A stretch of DNA of 64,000 bases from sequence record PQ818763; one strand, given 5' to 3'. This document shows, piece after piece, positions 42,626 to 47,282 of this stretch (position 1 is the stretch's first letter; each line of letters opens with the position of its first letter). Origin of the DNA: Shigella phage ShigP1. The notes beneath the pieces were generated by a model. It made no database searches and was not told the origin of the DNA. It was given only the letters and a program-made list of their open reading frames with translations. The translations under genes were made by a program, and so were the position numbers.

Positions 42626-44470
42626 TTAGTGTGTATGCATCCAGTTAAGTCCAATCTGACAATCAGATGCCAGAGGACATTCCATATTCAGATACTCGCC
42701 AGCTTTCTTAACACAAAGCTCGGTGTGCTCTTTGAGTTTCTGTACATCATTACGGTTTACTGAGAATTGACCTTCATCGTGCATATCAATTACCTTAGCA
42801 CAACGAACCTTATCTTTCTCAATCCACTTGTTAAGGAACATCATAGCATATTTCATAACAACAGCACCAGCACATTGCAGGAGTGTGTTAAGGGCTTTAT
42901 GAACCATAACCTTACCAGTGGCATCCCGTCTCATTGTAATCTTACGACCATCAACTCCAATCAAGTATCCTTGAGCAGCTTTCTCTGTCATACGATCAAT
43001 GAGGATTGCAATACATGGGTTCTCTGCTAAGAAACGTGCTCGCATCACTGAACCTTCGTCAGCCCCACCACCTACAATTGAACCAAGCTTAGCATCACCA
43101 GCACCATAGTTGAATGCGTAGATAAACGTCTTAGCGTTGTCACGAGTAGGAAGACCAGCAAGTTTCTGGTTGTGGGAGTGGATATCACCTTCAAGGAGAA
43201 TATCACGATACATAATAGCAGAAGCTAAACCACGTTCTGCCAGAGCTTTCTTAGCTGGGTTGTTCTCTTCAATTGCCTCAGCAAGCATATCCCTACACTC
43301 TTTAATGAGGTAGTGAGCGAGCATACGAAGTTCAAGTCCAGAACCATCATACCCTAAGAATACTTCTTTACCAGCGGGTATGTAATATTTGTAAGCACCT
43401 ATAGGTTTATCTTTCTTCCCCGGCTTACCTTTCTCGTAAATTACGTTAGTACCTTTTCGTATATAACAACCATCAGGAACAACGTTAGTAATAACGAAAG
43501 GACGAGAGTGATCACTGTCTGAGTTATAGTCAGACTCAAACAGACTGCGACACTCGTGACCAAACAAACCACGGGAGGGAATATTAACCACGATACGATG
43601 TTTGAATCGAAAAGTCGGCGTAGCGCAGCTGTTAGCTTCTGCCGAAAGTTTACCATCTTCGCGTTCCTTTGCTATGAGTCCACTGATAAGACCTAGCCTG
43701 TGAGCCGCTACAACGCGTCTCTTAAGCAAACTTCCAACACTCCCTAGTTCACCCCCTAGCCCTTCTTCAAGAGTCTCCTCGAGGTTTGTAGGAGCTGTAG
43801 GCCACTTGTTTGATGTGGCTAATGCTTTCTTAATCTCATCAAACGTTACAGGATTACGGCGATTAGGGTTCAATCCCAAACCAAACACGTAAGCTTTCAT
43901 GTAGTTCTTAGTTTTAAACCTGAAGTGCTTTTCTAAGAACTTCTTAATATCAGCGTCAACCATCTCGGCTGTCTGCTTTTGCTTAGCATTGCCTCGCATC
44001 CAAGCAGTATACCATGCTTGGTATGTTCCATACTTTCTCATATCTTTCTTAATTTCGAAAGTATTCCAAGGCTTCTTAGATACGTTAAACTCTGGAGGAA
44101 GAAAGCCCTCATCCATAAGAGCTTCTTTAACTCGTGCATCCTTCGATGGGTCAAAGTCTACATATTCGACACAGGTGAAAGCTCCACCAATGTCTTCTCT
44201 CTTCAGTCCAACCCTATCACAATAAGCTTGAGGCCACTTCTGCAAAGCCCCTGACTTCTTAAATGGCTTCATGTAAGTAGAGCCATCTAATCTCATCTTA
44301 GGTAAGAGAGGAATCAACTCTCTGTCAATATTAACAATAATCTCTTTAAGGAGGTGAACATACCACCGAGCATTTCTTCGGTTGAAACTCACTCCGTGCT
44401 TTGCTTGCTTAGAGATTATATCAGCGACAGTCATCTCTGTCAAAAATGGAAGAGCGTCCGGGTTGCTCAC
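42626..44470 (-). CDS. DNA polymerase, family A, polymerase domain only
   Basis: Motif A LGYDGSGLELRMLAHY, motif B RDNAKTFIYAFNYGAG, motif C VIDMHDEGQF; no exonuclease motifs in this ORF. Confidence 0.85.
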   Translation of the reverse strand: MSNPDALPFLTEMTVADIISKQAKHGVSFNRRNARWYVHLLKEIIVNIDRELIPLLPKMRLDGSTYMKPFKKSGALQKWPQAYCDRVGLKREDIGGAFTCVEYVDFDPSKDARVKEALMDEGFLPPEFNVSKKPWNTFEIKKDMRKYGTYQAWYTAWMRGNAKQKQTAEMVDADIKKFLEKHFRFKTKNYMKAYVFGLGLNPNRRNPVTFDEIKKALATSNKWPTAPTNLEETLEEGLGGELGSVGSLLKRRVVAAHRLGLISGLIAKEREDGKLSAEANSCATPTFRFKHRIVVNIPSRGLFGHECRSLFESDYNSDSDHSRPFVITNVVPDGCYIRKGTNVIYEKGKPGKKDKPIGAYKYYIPAGKEVFLGYDGSGLELRMLAHYLIKECRDMLAEAIEENNPAKKALAERGLASAIMYRDILLEGDIHSHNQKLAGLPTRDNAKTFIYAFNYGAGDAKLGSIVGGGADEGSVMRARFLAENPCIAILIDRMTEKAAQGYLIGVDGRKITMRRDATGKVMVHKALNTLLQCAGAVVMKYAMMFLNKWIEKDKVRCAKVIDMHDEGQFSVNRNDVQKLKEHTELCVKKAGEYLNMECPLASDCQIGLNWMHTH

Positions 44471-44486
44471 TTTATACTCCTTTAAA

Positions 44487-44900
44487 TTATTGGTAAAGTA
44501 AATCTGTAAATGCTTGGTTATCTTCTACTACATCCAAGGATGTGGAATCAACAGCATATGTTCTCATTGCTGCATTTGTTTGTGCCCAAGTAGGTGGAGA
44601 ATAAGAAGACCTAACCTCACGAGGCTGCTCTCTGACTAGATGGGCCACAACCCTCTGATTAGCAACTTCTTCTCTTTCTCTAATAGCCCTCTGGATATAG
44701 GCCAGCTTCATGCCCCAAGCTTCTTCAAACTCTTGAGGATGCTTATCACTGATAACCACATACTGACGTTCAGGAATACCAGAGCGAATCTCTGATAATA
44801 ACTCATGGAATAAATCTAGTTCATGTTCAGTGAGATTCATTTCAATATCATCCCACTTAAGAACTAGGAAACGGTTTTGGTGTCTAGCTGGTAATGGCAT
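44487..44900 (-). CDS. Hypothetical protein
   Basis: ORF of 137 aa. Confidence 0.4.
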   Translation of the reverse strand: MPLPARHQNRFLVLKWDDIEMNLTEHELDLFHELLSEIRSGIPERQYVVISDKHPQEFEEAWGMKLAYIQRAIREREEVANQRVVAHLVREQPREVRSSYSPPTWAQTNAAMRTYAVDSTSLDVVEDNQAFTDLLYQ

Positions 44901-44903
44901 TCT

Positions 44904-45059
44904 ACTCCACCTCTACTTCAATGTAAGTTCTCTCGCCAACGTCATCTTTTAAGACCCATGCCTTGGCATCTTCTTCAGACTTAAAAGCTTTCACAACGCT
45001 GTATCCCCCTTCCCATTCATCACCGACCCAGCGCTGTCCTACGTAAATGTATTCTTTCA
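44904..45059 (-). CDS. Small hypothetical protein, 51 aa, absent from the ORF track
   Basis: Manual translation MKEYIYVGQRWVGDEWEGGYSVVKAFKSEEDAKAW... Confidence 0.3.
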
Positions 45060-45063
45060 TCAC

Positions 45064-45348
45064 TCAACCTTTCGGGAATGGCATTAAAAACTCTACAGCA
45101 GATTTGATTTCGTTATTGATTCGTGAATCACGGTAAGAGATAAACTTACCTTTGCTGTCACGTAACATCACATGGGTTCTGGCTGTTTTGTGAGGAAGCA
45201 AAGTGATACTGGTTGGTATAGTATCAATTCCTACAGAGCATGAATTAATAGTCTTACTCTCTACTAGCAGATAAGACCAAGTACGCGGTTTCTGCTCCGG
45301 ACGGTTGGGGTATGTGTCTCGAATCTGTACCATAGCTAACTTATTCAT
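45064..45348 (-). CDS. Small protein, paralogue 1 of a tandem pair
   Basis: C-terminal region KTARTHVMLRDSKGKFISY...AVEFLMPFPKG is shared with the adjacent gene. Confidence 0.45.
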   Translation of the reverse strand: MNKLAMVQIRDTYPNRPEQKPRTWSYLLVESKTINSCSVGIDTIPTSITLLPHKTARTHVMLRDSKGKFISYRDSRINNEIKSAVEFLMPFPKG

Positions 45349-45349
45349 G

Positions 45350-45604
45350 TTAAACTCCTTTAGGGAATGGGATGAGATTTTCTACTGCAACACGGAAAGA
45401 TTTTTCTACATCTTTGTTTTTATAAGAAATGAATTTACCATCAGCACCACGAAGGATTACATTAGTGCGAGCTGTTTTTGGGTTAATCTCAATCATCCGT
45501 TCGATGATCTTGTTTGATTTGTTGTGGTGGTTAGTGAAAGTCCACTTAACAATCTTGCCATCTCTGGTTACATCAAAAATATTTACGATTTTTACAATAG
45601 ACAT
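45350..45604 (-). CDS. Small protein, paralogue 2 of a tandem pair
   Basis: KTARTNVILRGADGKFISY...AVENLIPFPKG; same motif order as 45064-45348. Confidence 0.45.
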   Translation of the reverse strand: MSIVKIVNIFDVTRDGKIVKWTFTNHHNKSNKIIERMIEINPKTARTNVILRGADGKFISYKNKDVEKSFRVAVENLIPFPKGV

Positions 45605-45631: not shown

Positions 45632-45670
45632 TTTATATAAAAGAAAAGGCCACCCATTTGGGTAGCCTCA
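45632..45670 (-). terminator. Hairpin with T-run on the minus strand
   Basis: ggctacccaaatgggtggcc followed by TTTTCTTTT on the minus strand. Confidence 0.5.
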
Positions 45671-45672
45671 TA

Positions 45673-45990
45673 TTACGATGAGCTTAAAGCCCCTTTGCGT
45701 GCTCCAGCTGCTTTTCCAGCTCGATCACCACTTTTGCCGCCGTTTGAACGGTTTGAGCTGACTGATTCAACACGTAAGTTGCTTGACGCATTAGAGCCTC
45801 CAGACTTGACAGCTCGTTTGTGTCCAACATCTTTACCTCTGACAGCAGCTTTTCCATCGCGCTTTTCAACGATGCGACGTGCACGGTGGCGCTGAGCATC
45901 TCCGCTCTTGCTCCCAACGCCTGTTTCACCACGGGCAATTGCGGTACGTCTTTCTTGTGCATAATCTCTCTTTCCTACATGGTCTGCCAT
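45673..45990 (-). CDS. Basic Gly/Lys/Arg/Ser-rich low-complexity protein (KGG-repeat-like or nucleic-acid-binding)
   Basis: Frame chosen over two overlapping shadow ORFs by codon periodicity (G-first, T/A-third codons) and a strong SD (AAGGAG, 6 nt spacing). Confidence 0.4.
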   Translation of the reverse strand: MADHVGKRDYAQERRTAIARGETGVGSKSGDAQRHRARRIVEKRDGKAAVRGKDVGHKRAVKSGGSNASSNLRVESVSSNRSNGGKSGDRAGKAAGARKGALSSS

Positions 45991-46046
45991 TTAGAACTCC
46001 TTAATATATCAGTGTACACTAAGGAGTATACATTATAAGTTACTGT

Positions 46047-46784: not shown

Positions 46785-46966
46785 TTACGCTCTCCAATTT
46801 CTTCGTAATGACATTCAGTAGTTAAACAATCTTTACAGATTGCTGTGTAAACCCTGACGTTAGTAAATCGTTTGTTCTTCCCTTTGGTTGGAGAGCCTTT
46901 AGCAAGCTCTCTGATAACCTTGTTACTTAAGTGAAGGTTTGTCCCTTCACATCTAGAGCACTTCAT
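46781..46966 (-). CDS. Small zinc-ribbon protein
   Basis: CSRCEG ... CKDCLTTEC (two CxxC pairs) in 61 aa. Confidence 0.4.
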   Translation of the reverse strand: MKCSRCEGTNLHLSNKVIRELAKGSPTKGKNKRFTNVRVYTAICKDCLTTECHYEEIGERK

Positions 46967-47282
46967 GGTTCATATCTTTATGAAGTCTATAAACAGCTGT
47001 CGCCATACAAGCAACAGCTTCATTATGCGGGAGATGCATACCTGTAGAACCATCCCAATCCCTGAACTCATTGTCAAAGACTCCGGTAGGCTCTTGATAC
47101 AAGGCTTGCAACTCCACTAGATCATTAGCAACTTGTTGCCATTTATCATCAGACCAGATAGGGTCATCCAACCAGTAATACAAATAGGAATGGATGATCA
47201 ATTGCCTTCTGTGCCGATTAATTACTTCAGCGGGACTTATCTCACTTCCATTTGAAGTCCTAAATGTATTACTGTCAATCAT
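46953..47282 (-). CDS. Hypothetical protein
   Basis: ORF of 109 aa. Confidence 0.4.
   Translation of the reverse strand: MIDSNTFRTSNGSEISPAEVINRHRRQLIIHSYLYYWLDDPIWSDDKWQQVANDLVELQALYQEPTGVFDNEFRDWDGSTGMHLPHNEAVACMATAVYRLHKDMNHEVL

Follow-up and report, generated by a model that had tools for sequence, protein, structure and literature searches.

Two small genes that stand next to each other on the minus strand of a phage genome and share a C-terminal block raise the question whether one conserved module was joined here to two different N-terminal regions or one whole protein was duplicated, and what role such a protein may have beside a DNA polymerase gene. The span 45064–45604 of the window (the whole 64,000-nt stretch of Shigella phage ShigP1 DNA that was analysed, record PQ818763) consists of exactly two minus-strand ORFs: gene B (84 aa; 45350..45604), the upstream copy, was assigned from the ORF list, PHROG 6814 and synteny as the orthologue of phi32_57 of phage phiEco32; gene A (94 aa; 45064..45348), the downstream copy, was assigned from the ORF list and PHROG 6814 as the orthologue of phi32_56. 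About 98 Escherichia/Shigella phage records of the phiEco32 group match 1.7 kb around the pair at 90–96% identity, and on this ground the window is assigned to Kuravirus (phiEco32-like podophages; Gordonclarkvirinae). Both genes are annotated CDSs in the ca. 98 records; with the low dN/dS among Kuravirus orthologues this identifies A and B as real genes. In phiEco32 both are annotated as hypothetical. Homologues of phi32_56 and phi32_57 were listed for 5/5 compared phages of the phiEco32 subgroup and for neither phage 7-11 nor GAP52 (PMC8948821 Table S2). The pair is thus a real, correctly located feature, ordinary as a genomic phenomenon and already catalogued (phi32_56/phi32_57, PHROG 6814), its common origin being implicit in public resources; compared with the phiEco32 genes and their orthologues nothing differs in kind, and the family carries no function in annotation.

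Similarity of A and B: BLASTP aligned A54–94 with B43–83 with 23/41 identities (56%), 31/41 positives and 0 gaps (E = 2e-15), the aligned block reading KTART.V.LR..GKFISY...AVE.L.PFPKG, which is the motif string quoted in the first-pass annotation. The block of B (residues 43–83, 45356..45478, minus strand; KTARTNVILRGADGKFISYKNKDVEKSFRVAVENLIPFPKG) comprises the second hairpin region, helix 2 and the PFP tail; that of A (residues 54–94, 45067..45189, minus strand) reads KTARTHVMLRDSKGKFISYRDSRINNEIKSAVEFLMPFPKG; both were delimited by BLASTP, family alignments and DSSP of the models. Full-length Smith–Waterman comparison of A with B gave a score of 120 versus 24.5 ± 4.3 (maximum 45) for shuffled sequences (n = 2,000), so that the similarity was reproduced on formal alignment, and chance was ruled out by the E value together with the shuffle test. 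The description of the two genes as a tandem paralogous pair with a conserved C-terminal block was hence borne out, both proteins belonging to PHROG 6814.

The same annotation had held that the N-terminal halves differ and had taken this as a sign of a common functional module with divergent specificity regions. The first part stands as far as direct comparison goes: Smith–Waterman alignment of the N-halves of A and B gave 19, equal to the shuffle mean, with no significant similarity; hhalign of two shallow N-half (clade) profiles gave a probability of 0.3%; and the N-half is the variable part of the protein. It does not stand in the sense of unrelated sequences. A matched PHROG 6814 over residues 1–94 (profile positions 1–85 of 86; E = 6.7e-37) and B over residues 1–84 (profile positions 1–86 of 86; E = 4.3e-36), i.e., end to end. 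When the N-halves were scored alone against a profile made solely from the corresponding part of distant relatives within the family, A reached 44 bits; B reached 7.8 bits, a marginal score attained by ca. 0.3% of shuffles. The strand patterns V-x-I-x-D and W/T-x-Y/F as well as D11 were found in alignments to be common to the family N-halves, those of A and B included.

AlphaFold2 models of both proteins displayed the order strand-strand-helix-strand-strand-helix; B: strands 6–12 and 18–24, helix 30–40, strand 49–52, short strand 58–59, helix 68–75 (pLDDT 82, pTM 0.68); A: strands 6–12 and 22–28, helix 41–48, strand 56–63, single bridge residue 69, helix 79–87 (pLDDT 84, pTM 0.74); the C-terminal L-x-P-F-P tail was of low confidence in the models. 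Structure prediction, proposed with the original observation as a check on it, therefore returned the same element order in both chains, which speaks against unrelated N-halves. From the models and the profile matches we read A and B as full-length paralogues of one small α/β protein that have diverged asymmetrically; the term "single domain" rests here on the common element order and the pTM values, not on model coordinates. A portable C-terminal module fused to unrelated N-terminal domains of different specificities, for which the null comparison of the N-halves and the marginal score of B would speak, is very unlikely in view of the full-length PHROG matches, the identical order of predicted elements along the whole chain, the 44 bits of A and the common D11 and strand patterns; moreover, the C-terminal block was joined to nothing else among 1.84 billion representative proteins. 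What had been taken for divergent specificity of the N-halves would fit a faster, mosaic evolution of the N-half of B. An internal duplication within each chain (hairpin-helix twice; V-x-I-x-D...T-W-x-Y vs V-x-L-R-D...K-F-I-S-Y) was considered as well; hhalign placed the two halves in register with P = 0.055, which is not significant and does not establish such a duplication.

Extent and conservation of the family: an exhaustive HMM search of the 1.84 billion representative proteins gave 30 matches at E ≤ 0.001, of which 27 are stand-alone proteins of 79–103 aa; no domain fusions or annotated relatives were found in it. The three large matches, P0107, P0108 and P0109 (572, 1465 and 1106 aa), were rejected as repeat proteins or a kinesin fragment in which short motif matches had been summed. 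As a separate observation, the repeats of the metagenomic P0107 (T-E-V-F-A-R-G-A-D-G-K-L-I-H-x-Y) resemble by eye the family hairpin (T-N-V-I-L-R-G-A-D-G-K-F-I-S-Y) at ca. 10/18 positions per repeat, probably by convergence on a strand, tight turn, strand motif and not by homology. The family is small (ca. 27 clusters) and was seen only in phiEco32-like phages; 30/30 diverse relatives also match PHROG 6814. Members used for the assessment of conservation have only 26–40% identity with B. Across the 30 diverse members T47, G56, S60, F80 and P81 (B numbering) are invariant, and D11, I37, T44, A45, R46, N48, V49, F58, L77 and P79 are conserved in ≥90%; constraint is by far the strongest in the C-terminal block, in agreement with the emphasis placed on it at the outset.

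Pfam, NCBIfam and PADLOC scans of the 30 members gave nothing above noise (the sole PADLOC match was at chance level, E = 0.013); a sequence profile search of the PDB gave only noise at E > 0.1; a search of BFVD returned family members only; PHROG 6814 was not mentioned in the literature searched. The fold is unclassified by the searches run, and function is not readable from it. An origin from the E. coli host or its prophages was ruled out, no blastn match being found in 5,426 complete E. coli genomes. A and B are both basic (pI ca. 10); across the scored members pI values span 4.6–10.8, and net charges of −6 to +6 were obtained for the N-half, the C-half being positively charged in most members (median +3) and ca. 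40% of the scored members being acidic or near neutral overall. Generic polyanion binding, as might be read from the charge of A and B, was therefore rejected for the family as a whole.

Evolution of the pair: the nucleotide identity of the C-terminal blocks of A and B is 57% with a saturated pS of 0.73, and codons are identical at 9 of the 23 identical residues. A recent duplication or gene conversion is ruled out by these values, from which it follows that the duplication is old and that protein-level selection has preserved the likeness of the blocks. For orthologues within Kuravirus, dN/dS was ca. 0.06–0.16 (C-half of A), mostly 0.1–0.2 (N-half of A), ca. 0.02–0.23 and mostly ≤0.16 (C-half of B), and 0.15–1.2 with a median of ca. 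0.3 (N-half of B), the typical level in A and in the C-half of B being ca. 0.05–0.16; both copies are judged from these ratios to be under purifying selection. Gene A of the window is nucleotide-identical to phi32_56 of phiEco32 (dS = 0); gene B is ca. 67% identical to phi32_57 (N-half pN 0.35, pS 0.52) and nearly identical to the allele of phage Paul. A Paul-type B allele beside a phiEco32-identical A indicates that B is exchanged by recombination among otherwise near-identical phages.

ECBP2, KBNP1711 and the metagenomic contig L011 also have tandem pairs, spaced like B and A by 1 nt from stop to start. In a neighbour-joining tree whose deep nodes have <60% bootstrap, the upstream copies of the Kuravirus and ECBP2 lineages are placed apart from the downstream ones, which agrees with one old duplication. 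KBNP1711 has a distant member of the family as its downstream copy, which looks like a replacement. Phage Bas89 has the B-type copy only, without A and gp55, and an A-type N-half was found in 66/98 records, once in each.

Gene order: on the minus strand the window contains, from upstream to downstream, a gp58-like gene (45673..45990; 105 aa, basic; PHROG 4590, E = 8e-41), the conserved upstream neighbour of the family; B; A; a gp55-like small gene (44902..45063; 52–53 aa; PHROG 17007) that begins directly after the stop of A; a gp54-like gene (44487..44900; 137 aa; PHROG 11427), the usual downstream neighbour; and a family A DNA polymerase, PolA (42626..44470), which anchors the conserved neighbourhood and is annotated in phiEco32 as lacking both exonuclease domains. 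In phiEco32 the pair is flanked on one side by a PhoH-like gene and gp58 and on the opposite side by gp55, gp54 and the DNA polymerase gene. The annotations of Bas90 and Paul show this layout too. The conserved order runs from the gp58-like gene through one or two family copies and, usually, the gp54-like gene to the exonuclease-less PolA. The gp58-like/family/PolA order was found in the window, phiEco32, Bas90, Paul, ECBP2, KBNP1711, Bas89, L011 and L015–L017, and in part in L008 and L010. The three metagenomic phages L015–L017, whose family member is ca. 26–36% identical to B, have PHROG 4590, a single PHROG 6814, PHROG 11427 and PolA; the divergent phage contigs L010 (82 kb) and L008 (90 kb) have a single copy downstream of the gp58-like gene, which was thus found as upstream neighbour in L008, L010, L015, L016 and L017. 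In L010 other genes, one of them DprA-like, lie between the family member and the polymerase in place of the gp54-like gene.

Junctions and expression: a single nucleotide separates the stop of B from the ATG of A, and at every junction checked (tandem pairs and family-to-gp54-like junctions of distant phages) the stop of the family gene lies 1–4 nt from the next start. The AAGGAG Shine–Dalgarno sequence of gene A (45355..45360, minus strand) is located within the last codons (K-G-V) of B, the junction reading CCTAAAGGAGTTTAACATG; GGAG or a near variant was found in the codons after P-F-P at all checked junctions but one (ECBP2). Since these codons carry the Shine–Dalgarno sequence of the next gene, the KG of PFPKG, or the glycine after PFPx, reflects at least partly a constraint at the nucleotide level. 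The layout of the junctions is compatible with translational coupling to the downstream gene.

A strong, terminator-like hairpin of 10 pairs (6 G-C; 45669..45646, minus strand) follows the gp58-like gene; with its T-run it forms an intrinsic-terminator-like element (45636..45669, minus strand; consensus scan and sequence) between that gene and B, the start of which lies ca. 30 nt past the T-run. No promoter consensus was seen between the hairpin and B. In front of the gp58-like gene an exact match to promoter P58 was found (46027..46035, minus strand; TAATGTATA); P58, recognised by the phage sigma factor gp36, is given with the same letters for phiEco32 and for five of its relatives (PMC8948821 Table S3). 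Given a hairpin ahead of B and no promoter consensus in between, B and A would most likely be expressed from read-through transcripts that also cover gp55, gp54 and the polymerase, P58 being the likely source of these transcripts. The family belongs to the polymerase-proximal middle operon of phiEco32-like podophages.

Comparison with other systems: in Salmonella phage 7-11 (Moazamivirus) the hypothetical protein gp065 (89 aa; L018 9783–10052, minus strand) occupies the slot between the gp58 homologue (gp068) and PolA (gp063), as the family does. It was not given as a homologue by BLASTP in PMC8948821. Its C-terminal segment FRTNVSVRDTKTGRFVKW aligned with the family hairpin at 15.9 bits (family HMM; E = 3e-4 in a six-frame scan of 14 kb). 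The C-terminal hairpin of gp065, R-T-N-V-x-x-R-D-x-x-x-G-R-F-V, is family-like, and a second one, D-G-R-F-V-S, lies near the N-terminus; the protein ends right after the hairpin, without the second helix and the PFP tail of the family. A homologue search that started from gp065 returned close relatives only and no bridge to other families. By the hairpin match and the syntenic slot, gp065 may tentatively be regarded as a truncated remote relative.

Among the nearest systems considered were the FAM3/ILEI (PANDER) proteins (FAM3B 2yoq, FAM3A 7ecq, the POMGnT1 stem 5ggf and TMEM2 8c6i); none of the 30 family members matched the FAM3/ILEI Pfam family at E ≤ 1. Small phage inhibitors (phi29/VMY22 p56, T7 Gp2, T4 Dmd) gave non-significant scores with 45–51 residues aligned and no sequence similarity. 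Unlike p56, which mimics DNA and is acidic, A and B are basic proteins; they lack the features of a phi29 p56-type uracil-DNA-glycosylase inhibitor (ca. 56 aa, acidic, matching fold). The predicted order of elements in A and B differs from that of an OB-fold single-stranded-DNA-binding protein, and no Pfam, NCBIfam or PHROG match to such a family was found. Neither an SpoVT_AbrB profile match nor a swapped-hairpin barrel in the fold search, as would be expected of an AbrB/MazE-type swapped-hairpin binder, was observed.

Proposed role: the reading preferred here, to which we give a probability of roughly 35%, is that A and B serve the replication module as small accessory proteins, binding a partner or ligand. 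A and B would be made together with the replication proteins, their amounts linked to each other and to that of the next gene; the family protein would be a small oligomeric accessory, and probably an A/B hetero-oligomer where a phage has both copies. The invariant residues, polar and gathered in one hairpin region and the L-x-P-F-P tail, fit a conserved ligand or partner: the polar positions (D11, T-A-R-T-N, R/K, G-K/R-F-x-S-Y) and the flexible tail would contact it, and the N-terminal half would be free to vary. Candidates for the partner are a nucleic acid, a nucleotide or a conserved protein of the replisome, for example the polymerase or the gp54-like protein. A role in replication is supported by a position and junction beside the polymerase that stay fixed over deep divergence, and by the lack of a recognisable single-stranded-DNA-binding or processivity protein among the ORFs scanned; against it, the charge is not conserved (pI 4.6–10.8), which argues against a generic nucleic-acid coat protein, no gp54-like gene lies next to the family in L010, A was lost in Bas89, a copy was replaced in KBNP1711, and the N-half of B is mosaic. 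Variable presence and mosaic alleles of this kind are met more typically in accessory genes for host interaction than in components of the replisome. Host takeover is also a frequent function of small genes next to a phage polymerase, T7 genes 5.5–5.9 being examples. Under a role in host takeover or anti-defence, nearly as likely as that of a replication accessory, the invariant hairpin and tail would hold on to a conserved host molecule, for instance an enzyme, a defence effector or a signalling nucleotide of immunity, the N-half (especially that of B) diversifying in an arms race and the duplication having widened the range of targets. The dN/dS of the N-half of B, elevated over the ca. 0.05–0.1 of its C-half, fits this, as do the recombining B alleles and the varying number and type of copies (A-type N-half in about two thirds of the records, B only in Bas89, replaced second copy in KBNP1711); furthermore, Gordonclarkvirinae are reported to be unusually resistant to restriction-modification and other tested defences by no known mechanism (PMC11990801). 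Position, putative coupling and neighbours are nevertheless fixed in very divergent phages, unlike those of typical anti-defence islands; no PADLOC, Pfam or NCBIfam signal was obtained, dN/dS is not clearly >1 and dS is saturated, and the basic A and B are unlike DNA-mimic inhibitors.

The basic residues conserved round the tight turn (R/K-D/G-x-x-G-K/R-F), the mostly positive C-half, the pI of A and B and the location of the genes directly after a promoter-plus-terminator unit would also suit a sequence- or structure-specific nucleic-acid-binding regulator of transcription or translation of the middle operon, the basic β-hairpin serving as reading head in a ribbon/AbrB-like manner; gp065 of phage 7-11, which at the equivalent locus has the hairpin motif as its sole family feature and a further hairpin of this kind towards the N-terminus, points in the same direction. 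Such a regulator is unlikely, no match to any DNA- or RNA-binding family having been found and a large minority of the scored members being acidic or near neutral. A more specific form of the replication-accessory reading is possible but doubtful: PHROG 6814 together with the gp58-like and gp54-like proteins would be an accessory set for the exonuclease-less PolA that replaces a processivity, single-strand-binding or loading function, the duplication having turned a homo-oligomer into an A/B hetero-oligomer of which the B subunit diversifies. As it stands the pair, two hypothetical phage genes already in catalogues, matters little; the family would gain some importance if it proved to be a required partner of the exonuclease-less polymerase or the source of the resistance to defences cited above, Gordonclarkvirinae being abundant, therapeutically used and poorly studied. 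Handles for testing are provided by the invariant residues, the conserved gene order, the single-copy Bas89 and the natural swaps of B alleles among near-identical phages.

Neighbouring genes: the ORFs scanned in 36–56 kb (part of all ORFs) included an exonuclease, a sigma factor, PolA, a primase/helicase and a Dps-like protein; no single-stranded-DNA-binding protein or processivity factor was recognisable among them. The gp54-like protein (PHROG 11427; 44487..44900, minus strand; L011 685–1518; L015 5266–5856; L017 5285–6223) is 117–312 aa long in total and consists of a conserved N-terminal domain of ca. 85 aa and a mostly acidic, low-complexity tail of widely differing length, the conserved tip of which in E. 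coli phages reads DNQAFTDL[LI]Y[QR]; by analogy, this layout recalls single-stranded-DNA-binding proteins with C-terminal interaction tips. The gp58-like protein (PHROG 4590; 45673..45990; L008 3243–3560; L010 3142–3510; L015 4630–4944) contains the motif D-V-[DG]-H-x6-G-G-S-N-x3-N-L-R-x7-N-R, which looks like a cysteine-less HNH (ββα-metal) motif; no Pfam or PDB sequence match was obtained for it. The gene has its own gp36-type promoter and terminator-like hairpin and is conserved out to phage 7-11. A 92-aa, coiled-coil-like ORF (45684..45962, minus strand) overlaps the gp58-like gene, which is rich in G, S, K and R, almost wholly in another frame; this frame was open in 15–85% of synonymous shuffles, broken in L015 and L017 and without a PHROG, and an overlapping gene was rejected in favour of a by-product of composition.

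HNH homing-endonuclease genes lie between the gp58-like and the family gene in Bas89 (L013 947–1441) and apparently in the YW01, SGF2 and EC.W phages. The label "autotransporter adhesin" found on the B-type gene or its neighbour in the ES17, pEC-N1203-2Af.1, DE5 and EC.W phages looks like a propagated annotation error, the proteins being of 84–105 aa with no such domain. A stand-alone protein of 109 aa (46953..47282, minus strand) contains only the NAD+-binding Ia domain of DNA ligase (Pfam Nlig-Ia, E = 4e-34); it is called "DNA ligase" in related records and is far too short for one. The polymerase gene is joined from two pieces in the Bas89 annotation and is split between gene calls in L015 and L017. 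Just inside the 5' end of the polymerase ORF of the window, on the coding strand, a perfect sigma-70 consensus was observed (44415..44443, minus strand; TTGACA, 17 nt, TATAAT, extended −10 TG).
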